Counted from the first letter of the stretch, positions 12,358 to 42,118 are shown. The stretch: 64,000 nt of DNA from a virus (IMGVR_UViG_3300043395_004688); one strand, 5' to 3'. A program made the numbers and translations. Notes: generated from the letters alone by a model not told the origin.

Positions 12358-13608
12358 ATGGCACTAGCAACTAAATCCGCACCTGTTAAGAGGGCCAAAA
12401 AGCCCATTGCCCGCAGTACTAGAACTGCGCCTGCTACCAAATACATGGCAGACGGCAAAACCAAGCTTCGGGCAATTAAAAGCATTGATGTAAAATACCT
12501 AGGAGATGAACCTTCTTGGGAGAACCAAGAGTCTTGGACTACAGAAGAGCTGAACTCGCGCTTGGGGCGAGCATTCAACTGGTACAATTACAATTGTGAT
12601 GGCAAAGATGCTCGTGAGTTCTTTGAGGATTGGTGCGCTATAACCCCGGGCTATGAGGAGTATCCAAAAAAGTTTAAACCATTGGCAGATTGGCACCTTG
12701 GCTCTACACTGGGCTTCCGTTGCAGGATGTTTATGGCCGGACTTAAGGTAAAAGATCCGGAAAAAGACCTGGCATTTATTAATAAACGCATTGCAGAGTG
12801 CGAAGAAATGCTGACAAAGCAAAAGCCTGCAAAAGCAGAGCCGTCGGCTACTGAAGTAGAAACAAAGAAAGAAACCATTCAGGACCGCCTGCGTGAAAAG
12901 TTTAGTGAAGTAGTAGGCGAAATTGAAGGAGCCATTGACGAATACTTTGACAGCAAGAAGGAGTTTGACACTTACAAATTCTTGCAAGCGTCGGGCCTAC
13001 CGGCACAATTTGCCGCAAAGATTCCAGAAATATATCAGCGTCATATTGCTGAACTGGAAGAATACCTCGAAGGTAAGTGCCCGCAATTGCTTGAAGGTTA
13101 CAAGCACCTTGGCAAGCGAGGTGCCAAGGATGCAATCAAATTTTACCAAAGCATCATTGACGGAGCCAATGCATACAAGACTGCAAAAATTGCAACCCGT
13201 GCCAAGCCTAAGCGCAAGCCAGTGTCACCTGAAAAGCTGGTTAGAAATCTAAAGTATCTCAAAGAGTTCCCTGAGCTCAAGCTTAACAGTATTGATCCGC
13301 GAGACATTATTGGCTGCACTGAGCTCTGGGTCTATAACACTAAGACTCGCAAGCTAGGCAGATTCCATGCCAATACACATGGTGATATGGTAATCACTAG
13401 CTTGGGCGTTAAAGGTAGTGCTATTACTGGCTTTAGCGAAACGCTGAGTGTTTGCAAAACTCTACGCAAGCCACAGGAAGTACTAGATAGGTTTAAAGTG
13501 TCCGGAAAGCCACAACTACGCAAGTTTATGGACCCTATCAAGAGCGTAGAAACCAAGCTAAAAGCCCGCATTAGTCCAGAAACTATCTTGCTCCGCGTTA
13601 TCAAGTAA
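12358..13608 (+). CDS. Conserved T4-like phage hypothetical (early/middle) protein
   Basis: 416 aa; SD AGGAG; conserved-looking C-terminus LWVYNTKTRKLG...TLRKP. Confidence 0.8.
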   Translation: MALATKSAPVKRAKKPIARSTRTAPATKYMADGKTKLRAIKSIDVKYLGDEPSWENQESWTTEELNSRLGRAFNWYNYNCDGKDAREFFEDWCAITPGYEEYPKKFKPLADWHLGSTLGFRCRMFMAGLKVKDPEKDLAFINKRIAECEEMLTKQKPAKAEPSATEVETKKETIQDRLREKFSEVVGEIEGAIDEYFDSKKEFDTYKFLQASGLPAQFAAKIPEIYQRHIAELEEYLEGKCPQLLEGYKHLGKRGAKDAIKFYQSIIDGANAYKTAKIATRAKPKRKPVSPEKLVRNLKYLKEFPELKLNSIDPRDIIGCTELWVYNTKTRKLGRFHANTHGDMVITSLGVKGSAITGFSETLSVCKTLRKPQEVLDRFKVSGKPQLRKFMDPIKSVETKLKARISPETILLRVIK

Positions 13609-13651
13609 GTTTTGCCAAGGTGTCTCCGGTAAATACTATCGGAGACACCAC

Positions 13652-14407
13652 ATGGCAGATACTACTCAAAGAAACAAAGCTCAAAAGTTCATTGAACTAA
13701 GCCTCGGCGGAGGCATGGTAGATGTTGAACTTGATAAAGAGCACTATGATATGGCTATTGATAAAGCCGTGTCTAAATACCGCCAGCGCAGTAGTCGCGC
13801 AGTTGAAGAAAGTTTTATGGTTCTAACTCTAGAGCCTGAAGTCAATGAATATGTGCTTCCTGACGAAGTAATTGAAGTCAGAAATGTCTATAGACAAAAC
13901 AGCGGTGGCGTGAGCTCAGGTGGGTCTGGTGCCACTGGTTTTGATCCTTTTGAAGCTGGCTATTTGAACATGTATTTGTTGAGCTATGCTAAAGCAGGAC
14001 GAGCAACAACATTTGAATTATACATGGGACATCGAGAACTTTTGGCCACAATGTTTGGTGCCTATGTAACTTATAATTTTTCAAATACTTCAAAAAGATT
14101 GTCGTTGCACAGACGATTTAATTCTGAAGAGCAAATAATTATTCACACCTACAATTATAGACCTGATGAAGAGTTGTTAGCAGACACCAGCTCTGCGCCA
14201 TGGATCAAAGACTATGCACTAGCACACGCTAAAATGATGCTAGGACAAGCTCGAAGCAAGTTTGCTCAACTAGCGGGTCCTCAGGGTGGTGTACAGCTCA
14301 ATGGAGCCGACTTGATCACACAAGCACAGGCCGAATTAGAAAAGCTTGAAGAAGATCTTAAGACTTACGCCGAAGGCGGAACACCTCTAGGCTTTATATT
14401 TGGATAA
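13652..14407 (+). CDS. gp13: Neck protein gp13-like
   Basis: LGGGMVDVELD...WIKDYALAHAKMMLGQARSKF...GGVQLNG pattern of gp13. Confidence 0.85.
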   Translation: MADTTQRNKAQKFIELSLGGGMVDVELDKEHYDMAIDKAVSKYRQRSSRAVEESFMVLTLEPEVNEYVLPDEVIEVRNVYRQNSGGVSSGGSGATGFDPFEAGYLNMYLLSYAKAGRATTFELYMGHRELLATMFGAYVTYNFSNTSKRLSLHRRFNSEEQIIIHTYNYRPDEELLADTSSAPWIKDYALAHAKMMLGQARSKFAQLAGPQGGVQLNGADLITQAQAELEKLEEDLKTYAEGGTPLGFIFG

Positions 14408-31832: not shown

Positions 31833-31989
31833 TAAAAACTGTCAAAAAACGGTTGACCTTTGAGCCCAGATCCAGCATAATAAGAACATGATGCAAAACA
31901 AGGCCCAAAAACAGCAAGTGTTGTATGTGTGCAACATTGCTAAAAACCGTCAAAAAACGGTTGACCTTTGAGCCCTGTTACTGCATAAT
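31833..31989 (+). promoter_or_regulatory. Two tandem duplicated sigma70-type early promoters
   Basis: 35-bp repeat at 31833-31867 and 31941-31975 with 1 mismatch. Each copy is TTGACC-17-CATAAT with an A-rich UP element. Confidence 0.9.
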
Positions 31990-32026
31990 AGATATTGTGT
32001 TAAACATTCCACGCAAAGGAAACAAC

Positions 32027-33082
32027 ATGTCAGCTTATATCACTATCCGCAACGGTTCCTACCGTAACTTCAACATCTCCAATCAGACATTCCAGCTTGT
32101 TGCCGACTACAAGGAAGGCACCAAGGGTGGCTATGTTACTGTTATTGCCGATGAAACTTTGGGCGAGTTTGCAGGACGCGAAGTTCGCGTCAAGGTTGAC
32201 TCCATGCGCGATGTTGTGCCGGCCAGTGCCGCCGAGTGTGCTACCAACAGCATCGACGCTAATTATAATGCACCCAAGCGAAAGGAACCCAAAGTGCAAG
32301 AGACTGACGAGCAGGCCATTGAACGCATTCGTGAGCGTTTTGACATCCTTGAGGAAATGACCGAGGGTGCTGTGGACGGCTCGGTTCGTGCTATGATTGT
32401 TGTTGGCCCTCCGGGTGTGGGCAAGAGCTTTGGTGTCGAGAAGGTACTGGACAAGGCTTCTATGTTCGACAAGATCGGTGGTAAGCGTCCTCGCTACGAA
32501 GTGGTTAAGGGTGCTATGAGTGCCATTGGCTTGTACTGCAAGCTTTACAATTACTCTGACGCCGGCAATGTGCTGGTGTTTGACGACTGCGACAGCGTTC
32601 TGCTTGATGACTTGAGCTTGAACATTCTCAAGGCTGCTCTGGACTCTAGCAAGAAGCGCACCATCTGCTGGAACACTGACAGCCGTATGCTTCGTAGCGA
32701 AGGTGTGCCGGACCGCTTTGAGTTCAAGGGCTCGGCCATCTTCATCACCAATATCAAGTTTGAGCATGTTAAGAGTGCCAAGCTTAAGGATCACCTTGGT
32801 GCGCTGGAAAGCCGTTGCCACTATCTGGATCTAACGCTGGATACCACCCGCGACAAGATGCTTCGCATCAAGCAGATTATGATGGACGGTATGCTGGACC
32901 ATTATGACTTTGCTGACGGTGTCAAAGAAGAACTCTACGAGTATGTTGACACCAACAAAGATCGTCTGCGCGAGCTGAGCCTGCGTACTGTGATTAAGAT
33001 TGCTGACTTGCGTAAGATGGTTGGTGAAGGCGACAAGTGGAAGCGTCTTGCAGAGACCACTGTGATGAAGCGCGGCGAATAA
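32027..33082 (+). CDS. AAA+-type P-loop ATPase
   Basis: GPPGVGKS Walker A, VLVFDDCD Walker B, IFITN sensor and ALESRC arginine finger. SD AAAGGA before ATG 32027. Confidence 0.9.
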   Translation: MSAYITIRNGSYRNFNISNQTFQLVADYKEGTKGGYVTVIADETLGEFAGREVRVKVDSMRDVVPASAAECATNSIDANYNAPKRKEPKVQETDEQAIERIRERFDILEEMTEGAVDGSVRAMIVVGPPGVGKSFGVEKVLDKASMFDKIGGKRPRYEVVKGAMSAIGLYCKLYNYSDAGNVLVFDDCDSVLLDDLSLNILKAALDSSKKRTICWNTDSRMLRSEGVPDRFEFKGSAIFITNIKFEHVKSAKLKDHLGALESRCHYLDLTLDTTRDKMLRIKQIMMDGMLDHYDFADGVKEELYEYVDTNKDRLRELSLRTVIKIADLRKMVGEGDKWKRLAETTVMKRGE

Positions 33083-33146
33083 GTTACCCCTGCCGTGTGC
33101 GTAACGGGCAATGTCAATAAGACCCGTTTCGATAAGGAGTTTTAAA

Positions 33147-34187
33147 ATGCGTAAGATGGCAACAATGCGACAAATTGATGAAGTCCGTCCCATTGAAGGT
33201 GCGGATGCCATTGAGTGTGCAGTAGTTGGTGGATGGACAGTAGTTACCAAGAAGGGCGAATTCAAGCCCGGGGATGTGGCAATCTACTGTGAAATTGACA
33301 GCTGGATCCCCCATGAGCTTGCACCGTTCCTTAGCCGAGGACAGGAGCCTCGCGAGTTTGAAGGTGTACGTGGTGAACGCCTGCGTACTGTAAAGCTTCG
33401 TGGACAATTAAGCCAAGGCCTACTGCTCAATTATTGGGATTACCCTGCGGTGGTCAACGAGTTTCATAAGACTCGCTTGGCCAGCAATGAACCATTCGAT
33501 GTCAGCGAGCTTCTAGGAATTAAGAAGTACGAGCCGCCTGTTCCGGCTCAGCTTGCCGGGGAAGTCAAAGGATTGTTTCCTGGTTGGTTGCAAAAGACAG
33601 ATCAGGAGCGTATCCAGAATCTTTCTAGCGAGCTAGCACATTGGATCAGCGAGTCTCATGCTTGGGAAATGACCGAAAAGCTTGACGGCAGTTCAATGAC
33701 CGTGTATCTTAACAACGGTGAATTTGGTGTATGCAGTCGCAATCTTGAGCTCAAGCCCAATGCAGAAAACTCTCTGTGGAAGGTTGCCGTCAAGGACAAT
33801 CTAGAAAGCAAACTGCGAGCAGAAGGCCGCAATCTTGCCCTGCAAGGTGAGTTGGTAGGAGAAGGCATTCAAGGCAATCCTTACAAGCTTCGCGGACAAG
33901 CTTACTATGTGTTTGACATCTACGACATTGATCGCGGGTGCTATTTTACTCCTGAGGAGCGAAAGGCATTGGTTACCAAGCACGGCATTGCTCATGTGCC
34001 TGTGCTAGGAACCTTGGTAATGGACAAGTCAACTACCATTGCTGACTTGCTAAAGATTGCCGAAGGCAAGAGTGTAATGGGAGATATCAATGGTCCTGAA
34101 CGAGAAGGCCTGGTCTTTAAGAGCAAACAGTTTCAGTGCTCATTCAAGGCCATTTCAAATCGTTTTCTATTAAAGACTAGCGGTTAA
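33147..34187 (+). CDS. RNA ligase, DRB0094 family
   Basis: N-terminal OB-like domain; motifs EKLDG, QGE, VFDI, EGLVFK and FKAISN. SD AAGGAG. Confidence 0.92.
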   Translation: MRKMATMRQIDEVRPIEGADAIECAVVGGWTVVTKKGEFKPGDVAIYCEIDSWIPHELAPFLSRGQEPREFEGVRGERLRTVKLRGQLSQGLLLNYWDYPAVVNEFHKTRLASNEPFDVSELLGIKKYEPPVPAQLAGEVKGLFPGWLQKTDQERIQNLSSELAHWISESHAWEMTEKLDGSSMTVYLNNGEFGVCSRNLELKPNAENSLWKVAVKDNLESKLRAEGRNLALQGELVGEGIQGNPYKLRGQAYYVFDIYDIDRGCYFTPEERKALVTKHGIAHVPVLGTLVMDKSTTIADLLKIAEGKSVMGDINGPEREGLVFKSKQFQCSFKAISNRFLLKTSG

Positions 34188-34392: not shown

Positions 34393-35850
34393 ATGCCAGG
34401 AATATGTCGACTAGAAATCCGTGACGAAGTAAACATCAAGTTTCATGACTTGGATGCATCAACACGCCGAAGATGCGAAGCTAAACTAAAATACCAACTG
34501 CCTTATGCATACCATGTGCCTGCCTTTAGGTTAGGAAGGTGGGATGGTAAGGTTGGTTTCTTTACAACGGCCGGTGCCACATATCTAAATCTATTGGATC
34601 GGGTACTGCCAATCTTAGACGAAGAAGGTTGGCGAATTGAAATTGAAGATCGTAGACTTGTACACAATTTCAATTTTGCAGAAGTTACCGAGGACACCTT
34701 TAGCCATATTGTTTGGCCCAAAGGTCACCCTGCAGAAGGTCAGCCTATCAAGATACGCGACTATCAAGTAGAGTGTATTAACAGGTTTCTTGCCAACCCA
34801 CATGGGGTGCAAGAGATTGCAACTGGTGCTGGCAAGACGCTTATGACAGCCGCTATGAGTTTGTGTTGCGAACCCTATGGGCGCACAATTGTTATCGTTC
34901 CTAACAAGGATCTTGTAAGACAGACTCATGCAGACTATGTGAACATGGGGCTAGATGTTGGTGTGTACTTTGGGGATGAAAAGGATCTAGGACACACTCA
35001 TACTATTGCTACTTGGCAAAGCATCAACTCGCTAATTAAAAGGCACAAAGAAGGTCTTAGCGAAGTTGGTGTAAGTGCATTAACAGATGATTTGATTGCT
35101 GTTATTGTTGACGAAGTACACATGGCCAAGGCCGATGTGCTTAGAACTTTGCTGACTGGGCCCTTTGCTAATGTACCAATTCGTTGGGGACTAACTGGTA
35201 CGGTTCCCAAAGAAGAACACGAGTATATCAGCCTAATTGCAAGCTTGGGGCAAGTGTTACACAGGCTGCAAGCCAGCGAGCTTCAAGATATAGGTGTGCT
35301 TAGTAACTGCCATGTTAAAGTATTGCAGTTTGACGATAAGGTTGATTACAAAACCTATCAGGAAGAACTGACATATCTAACTACCAACGAGCGCAGAATC
35401 GACGAGTTAGCACGAACCATTGATGCTATCAGTCAAGGCGGCAATACTCTAGTATTGGTAGATAGAATCACCTGCGGTAAAATGCTAGCAGAGCGATTAG
35501 CCGACAGCGTTTTTGTCAGCGGCAATATGAAAAGCAAAGACAGAAAGGAAGAATACGATGAGGTCACTGTCAGCGATAATAAGATCATTATTGCGACCTA
35601 CGGTGTCGCCGCTGTTGGTATTAATATTCCTCGCATTTTTAATCTTGTTCTTGTCGAACCTGGTAAGAGTTTTGTACGAGTTATCCAAAGTATTGGGCGC
35701 GGCATAAGAAAAGCACAGGACAAGGATTTTGTTCAAATCTGGGACATCACATCAACAGCAAAGTTTGCAAAAAGACATTTGGCTAAGCGCAAAAAGTTTT
35801 ATGAGGAAGCAAACTATCCCTACCAAACAGAAAAGGTTTTGTATAAATGA
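34393..35850 (+). CDS. uvsW: SF2 DNA helicase
   Basis: IRDYQ, ATGAGKT, DEVH, GLTGT and IQSIGR. Extended -10 TGCTATAAT lies 5 nt before the ATG. Confidence 0.93.
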   Translation: MPGICRLEIRDEVNIKFHDLDASTRRRCEAKLKYQLPYAYHVPAFRLGRWDGKVGFFTTAGATYLNLLDRVLPILDEEGWRIEIEDRRLVHNFNFAEVTEDTFSHIVWPKGHPAEGQPIKIRDYQVECINRFLANPHGVQEIATGAGKTLMTAAMSLCCEPYGRTIVIVPNKDLVRQTHADYVNMGLDVGVYFGDEKDLGHTHTIATWQSINSLIKRHKEGLSEVGVSALTDDLIAVIVDEVHMAKADVLRTLLTGPFANVPIRWGLTGTVPKEEHEYISLIASLGQVLHRLQASELQDIGVLSNCHVKVLQFDDKVDYKTYQEELTYLTTNERRIDELARTIDAISQGGNTLVLVDRITCGKMLAERLADSVFVSGNMKSKDRKEEYDEVTVSDNKIIIATYGVAAVGINIPRIFNLVLVEPGKSFVRVIQSIGRGIRKAQDKDFVQIWDITSTAKFAKRHLAKRKKFYEEANYPYQTEKVLYK

Positions 35851-36851: not shown

Positions 36852-37544
36852 ATGACTACGGAATATAAATGTAAATTTTGTAACAAGTCATTCACCAGAG
36901 AGCGTACTTTAAGCAGCCATATGTGCGAAAAGAAGCGTCGCTGGATGAACAAGGATGAAGCTGAAAGTAGGATTGGATTTAGTGTGTGGCTAGACTTTTT
37001 AAAGTATGTGAGCCCACACACTAAAAAGACCAAGACATTTGAAGATTTTGTTCGTAGTCCTGACTATTTGGCTTTTATCAAATTTGCTAATTACTTGATA
37101 GACTTGAAACCATACGAATGCGATAAGTTTATTAACTGGCTGTTTAAGATGGGTGTGAGATTAGGCGATTGGCAGAAGCCAGGAACCTATCAACTTTACA
37201 TCCAAGAGGCATCAAAAAAAGAAAGTGCAGCCAGAGCATTAGAAAGAACCATCTTGGTTATGCAGGAATGGGGATTGAGTACTGGTAATGACTGGAGAAC
37301 CTTTTTTGAAAAGGTGTCACCAGTTACCGGAATGAATATGATAACCATGGGCAAGATCAGTCCTTGGATTATATATTCAACAGACTCTGCTCAAAATCTC
37401 ATTGATCGTATGGAACCAGGACAAGTAACAATAGTTACTAAACATGTGGATACGGAATGGTGGAAAAGAAAACTGAACAAAGAGCCCAAAGAAGTGACCT
37501 GGATCAACACAATGATGCAGCAGGCCCTCAGTATGAGTCCTTAG
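36852..37544 (+). CDS. Hypothetical protein with an N-terminal C2HC zinc finger
   Basis: YKCKFCNKSFTRERTLSSHMC. Confidence 0.75.
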   Translation: MTTEYKCKFCNKSFTRERTLSSHMCEKKRRWMNKDEAESRIGFSVWLDFLKYVSPHTKKTKTFEDFVRSPDYLAFIKFANYLIDLKPYECDKFINWLFKMGVRLGDWQKPGTYQLYIQEASKKESAARALERTILVMQEWGLSTGNDWRTFFEKVSPVTGMNMITMGKISPWIIYSTDSAQNLIDRMEPGQVTIVTKHVDTEWWKRKLNKEPKEVTWINTMMQQALSMSP

Positions 37545-37660
37545 AACGCAGGTTGTTGGAGTTCATTGAAAAACTTGACAAGTTGACCCTAGAACTCAGC
37601 GAAATCAAACAACAGCAAAAACTACTGACAGACATGATTAAAAATGATAAATCAGCCTGA
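37457..37660 (+). CDS. Small coiled-coil protein overlapping the upstream gene by 88 nt
   Basis: Heptad LERRLLEFIEKLDKLTLELSEIKQQQ fills the gap to the next gene; start position uncertain. Confidence 0.55.
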   Translation: MVEKKTEQRAQRSDLDQHNDAAGPQYESLERRLLEFIEKLDKLTLELSEIKQQQKLLTDMIKNDKSA

Positions 37661-38243
37661 CATTGACATTGACTTTGCCAATAGAGAACAGATCCTCAGT
37701 TTGCTGAAACATGTTCCTGCAATGCAAGGATCCAATGGTAGCAAGCAAAAGCACAAGACTGGCGTGTATTTTCATCCAGTGCCGGTCAATCCCTATACAG
37801 GTTGGTGCAGCCTTGACTACGAAGCAGCCGAACAACTGGGATTTTTTAAAGTTGACTTATTAAATGTAAACTTGTATCAACGAGTCCAAAGCAAAGAGCA
37901 TTTGGATAAGCTTGCCAATCAGGAGCCGGTATGGGAACTTTTACAACAAGAGGAATTCGTCGATCTGTTATTTCATTTGAACGGGCATGGGGATGTTCTG
38001 AAGAGGACTTGCCCTACTTCCGTGGAACAATTAGCTGCCGTCCTAGCGATGATCCGCCCCGCCAAGAGATACCTGATTGGGAAACCCTGGACGACGATTA
38101 TGAAGGAAGTGTGGACGAAGCCTAAGAATGGTGAGTATTACTTTAAAAAGGCTCACGCTGTAGCTTATGCAGTTGCAATCGTGGCGCAGATGAATTTGAT
38201 TTGCGAAGAATTTGTACTTTTTAAAAGTACGAATCAGCTCTAA
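37644..38243 (+). CDS. Minimal family-C (DnaE/Pol III alpha-like) polymerase core
   Basis: PDIDIDF, HKTGVY, GFFKVDLL, LAMIRP and FKKAHAVAY match the order of DnaE motifs. Confidence 0.85.
   Translation: MINQPDIDIDFANREQILSLLKHVPAMQGSNGSKQKHKTGVYFHPVPVNPYTGWCSLDYEAAEQLGFFKVDLLNVNLYQRVQSKEHLDKLANQEPVWELLQQEEFVDLLFHLNGHGDVLKRTCPTSVEQLAAVLAMIRPAKRYLIGKPWTTIMKEVWTKPKNGEYYFKKAHAVAYAVAIVAQMNLICEEFVLFKSTNQL
37931..38125 (+). CDS. Overprinted 64-aa acidic-tailed protein nested in the mini-DnaE gene (-1 frame)
   Basis: AGGAG at 37921-37925, 5 nt before the ATG. Stop-avoiding synonymous codons in the host frame. Confidence 0.65.
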   Translation: MGTFTTRGIRRSVISFERAWGCSEEDLPYFRGTISCRPSDDPPRQEIPDWETLDDDYEGSVDEA

Positions 38244-38614
38244 GACATCTTTCTAATAAGGCTAATTTGTCGCCGTTTAGTTCGCTTGGTAATCACATTT
38301 GTCAGACTAGTTTGATGCCCGTACAGCATTTCAAAGTCTTTGGTGCTAAAAGTTTTGAGGATATATGAAAACCGACGCATGGGCTCTTTGAGCACAATAT
38401 TAATAGGGATTAGGCGGTTTGATCCCCACCACCATTCTTCTCCACATTCAATGAATGCAGTTTTGTCATCGTCGCCTTTTAGCTGGTTGTAGACATACAT
38501 TGTGACCACAGTTTGGTCACTGTTTTGTACAATTCCAACCAATTCGCTGTCGCCGTAGCGCACCAAGCTCATAAAAGGAAAGCGTTCTAGAAATTCTTTT
38601 AGCTTACTATCCAT
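38240..38614 (-). CDS. Conserved hypothetical late protein
   Basis: TAAGTA box at 38621-38626 (minus strand), 6 nt before the ATG. Confidence 0.7.
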   Translation of the reverse strand: MDSKLKEFLERFPFMSLVRYGDSELVGIVQNSDQTVVTMYVYNQLKGDDDKTAFIECGEEWWWGSNRLIPINIVLKEPMRRFSYILKTFSTKDFEMLYGHQTSLTNVITKRTKRRQISLIRKMS

Positions 38615-39472: not shown

Positions 39473-40441
39473 ATGAGTCTAGTTGAAACTACTCTACGGT
39501 CCCACCTACCTGCATTAAAACCTAGCTCGTCTGGCTGGCTCAGCATGAACTGTCCGGTTTGTGTGCAAAATGGCCAGCCCAGGCCTGACACTCGTTATCG
39601 AGGCGGCTTTAGATTTGACACAGACAAAGTAGGTTATCATTGCTTTAACTGTGGATTCACCACAGGATGGAGGCCTGGTCAACGACTTGGCATCAAGCTG
39701 ATCAAGCTCATGCGAGCTGTTGGCATTGATGAAGGCGAAATCCAGCGTTTAAAAATACAGCTTTGGGACCAAGTAGTACCGGATGAAGTTAGCATTGAAG
39801 AGCCATTCAAAAAGCCAGATTGGCCAGAAATACAATGGCCCTGGACAGTAAGAGATTTAACACTTGAAGCCGCAGAATATCTTGACAGCAGAGGCGTGTT
39901 AGAACTTAGCGACTGGTATACAAGTGCAAGTCCTCTGCAAAGTATGGACAGTCGTGTTATATTGCCTTATACCAGCGATGGCAAGATTGTAGGATATAGT
40001 GCTCGTTGGATTGGCAATGTGCCAGATAAGAAAACTGCAAAGATGATTAGCAGTAGACCTCCAAGCTTTGTATTCAACCTAGATCATCAAAGCCAACAGC
40101 GTAAGTACACAATAGTAACAGAAGGCGAATATGATGCATTGACGCTGGATGGTGTTGCAATTATGACCAATGAAATTAGCCCCGAACAAGCTAAAATCAT
40201 TGAGGACATTGATAATGAACCTGTTGTTTTGCCTGACCGCGATCGTGCCGGAATGACCTTGGCTTTACAAGCAGCCGAACTGGGATGGAGTGTGAGTTTT
40301 CCAGAGTGGCCAGATGGCATTAAGGATGCTAACGAGGCTGCACAACAATTTGGAAGAGCTGCCACACTACAAAGCGTGATTATGGCAATTGAACCTAGTC
40401 CGCTAAAGATTAAATTACTAGCAAGGCGGTGGTGTGTTTGA
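39473..40441 (+). CDS. DNA primase (gp61-like)
   Basis: Zn motif CPVC...HCFNC; Toprim TEGEYDAL and PDRD; KDANE. Confidence 0.92.
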   Translation: MSLVETTLRSHLPALKPSSSGWLSMNCPVCVQNGQPRPDTRYRGGFRFDTDKVGYHCFNCGFTTGWRPGQRLGIKLIKLMRAVGIDEGEIQRLKIQLWDQVVPDEVSIEEPFKKPDWPEIQWPWTVRDLTLEAAEYLDSRGVLELSDWYTSASPLQSMDSRVILPYTSDGKIVGYSARWIGNVPDKKTAKMISSRPPSFVFNLDHQSQQRKYTIVTEGEYDALTLDGVAIMTNEISPEQAKIIEDIDNEPVVLPDRDRAGMTLALQAAELGWSVSFPEWPDGIKDANEAAQQFGRAATLQSVIMAIEPSPLKIKLLARRWCV

Positions 40442-40631
40442 AGTTAGAATAGATTGGAAACTAGGTCAAGACACAGAGGAATGGTGGAATCAAGCCTGTG
40501 CTTGGGTCTTAGAAGAATTTGGACTACCGGGCAGTTGCTACAACATAAGGTTCACAGAAAATTACATGATTTTTGATTTTGATAATAAAGAAGATGCTGT
40601 AACAATGATGTTGCGATGGGGGAAAAATTAA
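40434..40631 (+). CDS. Small hypothetical protein
   Basis: 65 aa, coupled between the primase and helicase genes. Confidence 0.65.
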   Translation: MFEVRIDWKLGQDTEEWWNQACAWVLEEFGLPGSCYNIRFTENYMIFDFDNKEDAVTMMLRWGKN

Positions 40632-42118
40632 TGGCAGACGAAGCTAAGAACTACGGGCATGATATACAACAACTGTTTTTATCGTTTTTGATCAGTAATC
40701 GAGATCTGGCTGCTCGTTGTCAGAATGTGTTAGAGCCGGAACACTTTGATCGCAGGCTCAGAGCTGCTGCCGAGTTTATTAAAACCTATATCAACGAACA
40801 CGGCAACATTCCTGATGCCATACAGATCAAGGCATCAACAAATATTGAATTAACTGACCTAGGTGACCGAGCACATGAACATAGCTCGTGGTTCTTGGAT
40901 GAGTTTGAGGGCTTTGCCAGACATAAGGCATTGGAGAAGGCTATTCTCCAAAGCGCCGACTTGCTGGATAAGAGCCAGTATGGTGCAGTAGAAAAGCTAA
41001 TCAAAGATGCAGTTCAGGTTGGACTACCAAAGACTTTTGGCACAGATTACTTTGCAGATCCCCAAGGGCGACTAACCGCACTAAAAGATAACAACGGCCA
41101 GTTGAGCACTGGTTGGAAGACACTGGACGATAAGTTGTATGGTGGTTTTAATAGAGGCGAACTAAACATCTTTGCAGGTGCATCAGGTGCAGGTAAAAGT
41201 TTGTTCTTACAAAATCTTGCGCTTAACTGGGCAATGACTGGCCTTAACACAGTTTACTTTAGTCTTGAATTGAGTGAAGGACTGTGTAGTATGCGTATGG
41301 ATGCAATGCTAACAGACACACCAACTCGCGAAGTGTTTAAGCGGCTTGAAGATGTCGATCTCAAAGTTAGAATGAGTGGTAAGAAGGCCGGAGTACTGCA
41401 AATTGTACAGCTGACCAACGGCATTACAGCCAACGACATCTTGGCATGGGTGCGCGAGTTCCAAACACAGCGCAAAATCAAAGTAGATGCTATCTTGGTT
41501 GACTACTTGGATTTGATGATGCCAGCAAGTCAAAAGATCAGTGTTAGTGATATGTTTGTTAAGGACAAGCTGGTAGCAGAAGAATTGCGTAACTTGGTTG
41601 TCAGCGAACAGTTATTGTTGGCAACAGCTAGCCAGTTGAATCGTAGTGCAGTTGAAAGCGTGGAGTTTGACCACTCTATGATTGCCGGTGGACTTAGTAA
41701 GATTCAAACTGCGGACAATGTGTTTGGTATTTACAGTACACCTGCAATGAGAGAGCGTTGCATGGTGCAGATCCAGTTTATGAAAACTCGTAGTTCTAGC
41801 GCAGTTGGGCAAAAGATTGATCTAAGTTTTAATCCAGATACTCTGCGTATATCTGACGCTGCCGATGACAGCAATGCTAATGTTAGCAAAGCATCAGATG
41901 TATACGAAAGAATCAAACAAAGGTCAAATGTAGGAACTACTGTGAATACAGGATCTTCGGCTTCGGCTCCTTGGGAGAAGCCCACTGGAACTCATGCTTG
42001 GGAAAAGCCAATGAATAATTCTGGAGCAGAAAAAGCTGAACAGCGTTCCAGTACTGCACCAGTGGCCACCAGTGTTCAACGAGCAGCCTTGGCTAAAATT
42101 GTAACGAGAGAAATCTAA
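40631..42118 (+). CDS. gp41: Replicative DnaB-like helicase
   Basis: GASGAGKS, SLE, VDYLDLM, TASQLNR and KTRSS. Confidence 0.95.
   Translation: MADEAKNYGHDIQQLFLSFLISNRDLAARCQNVLEPEHFDRRLRAAAEFIKTYINEHGNIPDAIQIKASTNIELTDLGDRAHEHSSWFLDEFEGFARHKALEKAILQSADLLDKSQYGAVEKLIKDAVQVGLPKTFGTDYFADPQGRLTALKDNNGQLSTGWKTLDDKLYGGFNRGELNIFAGASGAGKSLFLQNLALNWAMTGLNTVYFSLELSEGLCSMRMDAMLTDTPTREVFKRLEDVDLKVRMSGKKAGVLQIVQLTNGITANDILAWVREFQTQRKIKVDAILVDYLDLMMPASQKISVSDMFVKDKLVAEELRNLVVSEQLLLATASQLNRSAVESVEFDHSMIAGGLSKIQTADNVFGIYSTPAMRERCMVQIQFMKTRSSSAVGQKIDLSFNPDTLRISDAADDSNANVSKASDVYERIKQRSNVGTTVNTGSSASAPWEKPTGTHAWEKPMNNSGAEKAEQRSSTAPVATSVQRAALAKIVTREI

Follow-up and report, generated by a model that had tools for sequence, protein, structure and literature searches.

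A 199-residue protein of an environmental jumbo phage is probably one chain of a two-chain minimal polymerase III alpha

The closest described counterpart of the protein analyzed here is a minimal Pol III alpha from group 2.2 jumbo phages, in which the enzyme is split between two distant genes and coexists with a family B polymerase (Iyer, Anantharaman, Krishnan, Burroughs and Aravind 2021, PMC7824862). According to Iyer et al., the split enzyme may cooperate with the family B enzyme, either in the synthesis of one strand or in repair. In addition, gp316 of the phage Atu_ph07 has been named Pol III alpha (PMC6102473). As for the activity of the split enzyme, the literature search returned genome annotations and the description in PMC7824862, and no biochemistry or genetics were found for either subunit. 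Below, the chain that begins at the PDxDxDF motif is referred to as the C-half, and the chain that carries the GRGS motif is referred to as the N-half. The C-half family and its split nature have been known since 2021, and the ORF described here is one more environmental member. The apparent novelty of a “one-sixth-size DnaE” is thereby removed, the protein being half an enzyme from a published and widespread jumbo-phage family.

The window, that is, the whole stretch of 64,000 nucleotides that was analyzed, sits in a 177,701-bp IMG/VR contig with an estimated completeness of about 53%. An open frame with an ATG start at positions 37644-38243 (+) encodes a protein of 199 aa, and the strand opposite to it is full of stops. 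Based on the ORF, a match to PHROG 11778, the predicted fold and the dN/dS values, this gene was assigned to the putative C-terminal (Mg2+- and template-binding) subunit of a split minimal Pol III alpha. The protein begins with MINQ, so that the PDIDIDF motif (residues 5-11, positions 37656-37676, +) stands only four residues after the start; its D6 and D8 are the counterparts of the two catalytic aspartates in the DnaE PDxDxDF motif. The HKTGVY motif (residues 37-42, positions 37752-37769, +) corresponds to the palm strand that carries HAGGV in DnaE. It is followed by GFFKVDLL (residues 66-73), in which KVDLL (residues 69-73, positions 37848-37862, +) aligns with the KMDFL segment of DnaE1 and contains the conserved lysine K69 and the third catalytic aspartate, D71. 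Two finger motifs are located in the C-terminal part. The first is IRPAKR (residues 137-142, positions 38052-38069, +), which overlaps LAMIRP (residues 134-139), resembles DnaE LYRPG and aligns with DnaE1 residues about 660-663. The second is FKKAHAVAY (residues 167-175, positions 38142-38168, +), which resembles DnaE FNKSHAxAY and aligns with DnaE1 residues 772-788.

A single-sequence search of the PDB gave three weak but collinear segments of similarity with Mycobacterium tuberculosis DnaE1, namely, residues 413-424, 565-663 and 772-787, which match residues 4-15, 52-140 and 162-177 of the C-half, respectively. The collinearity of the motifs with those of DnaE is far beyond chance. The original prediction of a 199-aa ORF with DnaE motifs in DnaE order was thus borne out by the ORF, the DnaE1 collinearity, the PHROG 11778 match and the fold described below.

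The last 17 nt of a 67-aa ORF (37457-37660, +) coincide with the start of the C-half gene, and no obvious Shine-Dalgarno sequence was seen ahead of the ATG at 37644. Taken together, this arrangement suggests that translation of the C-half may be coupled to that of the overlapping ORF. A similar small ORF overlaps the start of the C-half homologue in Sinorhizobium phage Phosso. A further frame of 64 aa (37931-38125, +) is nested in the C-half gene in its +2 frame. It stays open in relatives with at least 77% identity and contains five stops in a 76%-identical relative (L043), and it is therefore probably a by-product of codon composition and not a gene.

The PHROG 11778 profile, annotated as “DNA polymerase”, matches residues 5-189 of the C-half with an E-value of 4.3e-61 over profile positions 7-194 of 197. 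When a profile of 37 homologues was compared with the PDB, DnaE was the sole match (E 7e-4). In the Pfam search, the C-half did not match PF07733 (DNA_pol3_alpha), and a sub-threshold finger match was obtained (14.3 bits vs. a cut-off of 22). 3D modeling with AlphaFold, using the alignment of 37 homologues, gave a model with a pLDDT of 90.5 and a pTM of 0.81, in which residues 24-30 and 33-42 form strands. According to the Foldseek comparison with the PDB, the best 15 matches are all Pol III alpha (best probability 1.0), and PolC (3f2b) ranks 18th. The VIA-align program gave Z-scores of 9.8 for PolC (3f2b), 9.3 for Taq (3e0d), 9.2 for M. tuberculosis (5lew) and 9.0 for Escherichia coli (2hnh), with an rmsd of 3.9-4.4 A for these four. 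Over the Pol III alpha and PolC structures, Z ranged from 9.8 to 8.7 and rmsd from 3.9 to 4.7 A, with 186-197 residues aligned. The first unrelated chain had a Z of only 3.5, and Pol III alpha and PolC are the sole strong structural matches. The superposition on the E. coli and Taq DnaE palms, which had been proposed along with the original prediction, was thus carried out, with the Z-scores of 9.0 and 9.3 given above.

According to the model, the fold of the C-half is the second half of a C-family (Pol-beta-like) palm together with a reduced finger. Residues 1-199 of the model cover about 397-814 of E. coli alpha and 458-886 of Taq; in the solved enzymes, the ~200 residues of the C-half correspond to a stretch of about 390-430, and no part of the C-half aligns past residue about 830 of E. 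coli alpha. The domain names and the approximate E. coli domain boundaries follow Lamers et al. 2006. Between the PDxDxDF motif and the HAGGV strand, the C-half has about 25 residues vs. about 140 in DnaE1, which indicates that the thumb insert is gone. About 110 residues are deleted from the finger relative to the solved enzymes. The PHP, thumb, distal finger, clamp-binding, HhH and OB parts are all lacking, as is the GRGS segment of the palm. The description of the protein as a reduced DnaE-type core without PHP, thumb, clamp-binding and OB domains is therefore upheld by the structure alignment.

The missing palm segment is found in the N-half, a protein of about 170 aa that carries the GRGS (NTP-binding) motif, which is invariant in the N-half family. 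With PF07733, N-halves score above the cut-off over profile positions 18-94; in PHROG, their match is family 11127. In Atu_ph07, gp316 has a length of 177 aa and ends with GVGRGSCVSSYILYIIGVHKVNSIKYDLDFSEFLE, which is the GS-motif segment of DnaE located immediately ahead of PDxDxDF. The N-half profile maps to residues 322-392 of E. coli alpha and 386-454 of Taq, and the C-half begins at about residues 397-401 of E. coli alpha. The split point is thus at about 392/398 of E. coli alpha, inside the palm, and separates its nucleotide-binding half from its metal-binding half. N-halves end at …EFLK/R, and C-halves begin with M..PDIDIDF. Inspection of these termini revealed no extra residues that could belong to intein pieces, and trans-splicing by a split intein was rejected on this basis.

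The complex of the two chains was modeled for the C-half, with its 37-homologue alignment, and the N-half of G007 (P0003), with an alignment of its own. G007 is a complete 372-kb relative, the own C-half of which is 56% identical to the C-half studied here. The pair scored 0.90 in three runs, while the best of three controls scored 0.00; since the pair is heterologous and the model may recall the palm of single-chain DnaE, the score shows compatibility, not binding. Of 80 solved complexes, 58 reached this mark, as did 2 of 110 mismatched pairs. On the side of the C-half, the predicted interface comprises residues 3 and 5-12 (the PDIDIDF strand), 65-68, 73 and 75; on the side of the G007 N-half, it comprises residues 130-143, which make up the GRGS stretch, and residues 166-169 at the C-terminus. 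In the model, this interface is as expected of a palm rebuilt across the cut.

Considering the above data, the C-half is likely the C-terminal subunit of a two-subunit minimal Pol III alpha of the type present in group 2.2 (Rak2/PA5oct/Atu_ph07-like) jumbo phages. We infer that the C-half alone would be inactive and that it would dock onto the separately encoded ~170-aa N-half, which would contribute the initial half of the palm together with the GRGS loop, where the incoming nucleotide would be held by its triphosphate. The C-terminus of the N-half (…EFLK/R) would abut the N-terminus of the C-half, so that one active site would be built from two chains, and the heterodimer would catalyze two-metal, templated nucleotide addition with D6, D8 and D71 as metal-binding residues. 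Since a thumb, a clamp-binding motif and an exonuclease are lacking, the heterodimer should be distributive. The search for a gp43-like polymerase elsewhere on the contig, suggested with the original prediction, was successful: an 881-aa ORF of the same contig encodes a family B polymerase that is 45-47% identical to the polymerase of Atu_ph07. In the phage, the heterodimer would assist the family B replicase as an auxiliary enzyme. Its likeliest roles may be to extend short primers or pass them on at the primase-helicase, or else to fill gaps and take part in repair, although the choice of an exact role is speculation.

A more ambitious possibility is that the two-chain mini-DnaE serves as a working second replicative polymerase, which either takes over primers at the primase-helicase and passes them to the family B enzyme or makes one of the strands; Iyer et al. 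had already considered this. We consider this doubtful, though worth keeping in view. If true, it would mean a mixed replisome with B-family and C-family polymerases, the logic of which would be comparable to that of DnaE and PolC in Firmicutes.

The proposed pairing of the C-half with a separately encoded N-half can be compared with the distribution of both genes. Using tblastn, the C-half was found in 96 isolate phage records, all of which are jumbo phages of the Rak2, PBECO4, PA5oct, Atu_ph07, SCTP-2 or Phosso type. The closest isolate homologue belongs to Sinorhizobium phage Phosso (54% identity), and a megablast search with 8 kb against the phage collection revealed no near-identical isolate genome. 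In IMG/VR, relatives of the C-half occur at 160 or more loci (at least). The counts of N-half and C-half among the isolates are close to each other: 34/34 for Escherichia, 11/11 for Pseudomonas, 10/11 for Klebsiella, 8/8 for Erwinia and 9/8 for Salmonella phages. The N-half is present in Phosso, Atu_ph07, PA5oct, K64-1 and SCTP-2, as well as in five complete IMG/VR relatives. In PA5oct, SCTP-2, a Vibrio phage, K64-1, Atu_ph07 and G007, the genes that come next after it are a small ORF, a GroES-like gene and an RFC/gp44 clamp loader. Among 14 large IMG/VR records that were chosen for having the N-half, nine contain the C-half; for the N-half-holding IMG/VR records with a completeness of at least 90%, the proportion is 5/6.

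The two genes are always far apart, with 140-230 kb between them in complete relatives. The distance is about 224 kb in Phosso and about 182 kb in Atu_ph07, and in G007 the genes lie near 70 kb and 218 kb. One record, G008 (359 kb, estimated completeness 94%), has an N-half at C1:108189-108695, and no C-half was found in it by protein search or by search with the 37-sequence profile. The C-half of G008 may lie in the missing 6% of the genome; otherwise, this record would be a true exception to the co-occurrence.

The N-half was also searched for on the 177.7-kb contig itself. It was found there neither with the Atu_ph07 N-half, tblastn, phmmer and a GRGS motif scan of all ORFs, nor with a 5-sequence or a 31-sequence profile in hmmsearch. 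G001, which at 280 kb (about 79% complete) is the nearest of the large relatives, likewise yielded no N-half. In relatives, the N-half is flanked by the GroES-like gene, the RFC clamp loader and further genes of that neighbourhood; all of these gave zero matches on the 177.7-kb contig, and synteny with Atu_ph07 stops short of the N-half region. Given that the contig represents about half of a genome and that the genes flanking the N-half are missing from it as well, the absence of the N-half is uninformative. Searches of the contig for other DnaE parts, namely, PF07733, the PHP domain (PF02811) and a DnaQ-type exonuclease (PF00929), all gave no match.

A 203-kb record with an N-half and no C-half, G015, was considered as the rest of the same genome. 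This candidate was rejected as a distant relative, the family B polymerase being only 53% identical; moreover, G015 and the contig share almost no nucleotide similarity. Two short stretches outside the window, G000:C1:138-208 and 2230-2307, are shared with G015 (96% and 83% identical, respectively), and their size and conservation suggest that they are tRNA genes.

These results bear on the possibility that the C-half, at least in this lineage, is a self-sufficient stripped nucleotidyltransferase with no other DnaE piece, which might even be template-independent. Such an enzyme would agree with the failure to find the N-half on the contig or in G001 and with the confident folding of the modeled C-half monomer by itself. 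However, the absence of a gene from a contig that is about 53% complete and devoid of the N-half flanking genes carries no weight, whereas the two halves are found together in the isolates and the complete records. In addition, the C-half lacks the GRGS segment that binds the triphosphate, the predicted complex has a strong score (0.90), and the preserved finger motifs speak for synthesis on a template; template independence finds no support in these results. Self-sufficiency of the C-half thus appears improbable. The original prediction of a stand-alone, complete nucleotidyltransferase is not supported, as the GRGS palm segment is encoded by a separate and distant gene in every complete two-gene relative examined. 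DnaE fragments elsewhere in the genome, forming a split conventional Pol III alpha, had been named as a finding that would speak against it; in spirit, this is what the N-half of the relatives represents, although the split enzyme is minimal and not a conventional Pol III alpha.

The gene neighbourhood of the C-half was analyzed next to its distribution. A UvsW-like SF2 helicase (34393-35850, +; Pfam ResIII, DEAD and Helicase_C; PHROG 16) forms the upstream anchor and occupies the same position in Phosso and RaK2. It is separated from the C-half by three conserved genes of unknown function (PHROGs 11279, 11758 and 11058). The C-half is directly followed by a small minus-strand gene (38240-38614, −; PHROG 11637, function unknown), an equivalent of which follows the C-half homologue in Phosso and RaK2. 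After a virion-protein-like gene come a gp61-type DNA primase (39473-40441, +; Toprim_2; PHROG 47) and a DnaB/gp41-type replicative helicase (40616-42118, +; DnaB_C; PHROG 19). The order of uvsW, C-half, minus-strand gene, virion gene, primase and DnaB is kept in Phosso and RaK2. The location of the C-half in a T4-like replication module is therefore confirmed with respect to UvsW, primase and DnaB, but the supposed clamp-loader-like neighbour is an AAA ATPase of PHROG 1250 and not an RFC/gp44 protein.

This AAA ATPase (31925-33082, +; PHROG 1250, E 2e-83; other AAA matches sub-threshold) and, after it, an RNA ligase (33111-34187, +; PHA02142 OB-fold N-domain; RNA_ligase, E 1.2e-32; PHROG 968) are both located directly upstream of the UvsW-like helicase. 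The PHROG 11058 protein (E 4.5e-62), encoded just upstream of the C-half at 36852-37544 (+), has a length of 230 aa and, at its N-terminus, a zinc finger of the C2H2 type (CKFCNKSFTRERTLSSHMC; weak Pfam matches).

Many nucleotidyltransferases that do not serve replication have the Pol-beta fold. The C-half, alone or with the N-half, could accordingly be imagined as a nucleotidyltransferase of this fold that is not a replicase or repair polymerase and acts, for example, in the tailing or modification of nucleic acid ends or in making a nucleotide signal for a phage-host conflict, and the RNA ligase gene 3.5 kb upstream would be in keeping with such a function, to which none of the analyses points directly. 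We regard it as highly improbable, because the nearest relatives in both sequence and structure are C-family replicases only, the finger motifs of DnaE have been kept and do not vary, the C-half is fixed in the uvsW-primase-DnaB module, and the N-half stands beside a clamp loader.

Conservation of individual residues was assessed in the alignment of 37 homologues, with identities down to 35%. Invariant in all of them are D6, D8, D10, K69 and D71, as well as the finger residues R138, P139, K141, F167, H171 and Y175; H37, G40 and L73 are invariant in the same alignment. In 37/37 aligned homologues, the start is located 0-4 residues ahead of PDxDxDF, i.e., the split point is conserved. The dN/dS of the C-half gene, calculated by the Nei-Gojobori method against nine relatives (76-94% identity), was 0.04-0.12, the most distant comparison being saturated at synonymous sites. 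These substitution patterns indicate that the gene is functional and that its catalytic residues are under strong purifying selection, and the view that the catalytic aspartates are conserved without signs of decay stands. Relics usually lose catalytic residues first. We therefore give hardly any credence to a catalytically dead relic kept for an accessory role, structural or regulatory, in the replisome, an idea that the extreme reduction of the C-half might invite, given the invariance of the metal-binding aspartates, K69 and the finger residues and the low dN/dS.

Judging by the models, no C-family polymerase core is known that is smaller than this two-chain one, which would be assembled from proteins of about 170 and 200 aa. 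Establishing what the split enzyme does would reveal what a C-family active site requires at a minimum and would show whether a phage replisome can combine B-family and C-family polymerases. To the 2021 description, the present analysis adds the fold, a heterodimer prediction with controls, the invariance of residues, dN/dS and the exact split point, as well as the fixed gene neighbourhoods of both halves and hundreds of environmental members.

Among known systems, the C-half resembles most closely Phosso gp437, RaK2 ORF124 and the homologues of Atu_ph07 and PA5oct in its length, its start at PDxDxDF and its motifs, with 36-54% identity. The order of uvsW, C-half, primase and DnaB and the presence of a family B polymerase in the genome are likewise shared with group 2.2 phages. 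Unlike the isolates, the phage described here represents an environmental (IMG/VR) lineage with no more than 54% identity to them, and the N-half was not found on its contig, a fragment that covers about 53% of the genome.

Another type of reduced enzyme is the single-chain phage DnaE without PHP (PHROG 405/11165 type), represented by P0004 of G003. The C-half has in common with it a C-family core devoid of PHP and a location in a replication module. In P0004 (548 aa; PF07733 E 1.8e-43), the GS motif, PDVDIDF, a thumb-sized insert and a fuller finger are all present in one chain. This protein was considered as an unsplit ancestor of the C-half and rejected, the similarity being marginal (BLASTP E 0.003), which points to a separate lineage. 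In G003, a related 155-kb jumbo-phage contig, a C-half is encoded at L078:6001-6549, and the P0004 gene is located directly after the DnaB helicase gene (L090:133-1779, −, equal to about 12744-14390 of G003:C1); two different reduced C-family polymerases thus appear to be encoded by one phage.

As for the cellular enzymes, the C-half shares with Pol III alpha and PolC (2hnh, 2hpi, 3e0d, 5lew and 3f2b) the order of the motifs and the fold of the second palm half and proximal finger. It differs from them in its length (199 aa vs. >1000 aa) and in the palm, which is cut between the GRGS segment and PDxDxDF. In comparison with canonical Pol III alpha, the C-half remains below the PF07733 cut-off, and PHP was not found anywhere on the contig.
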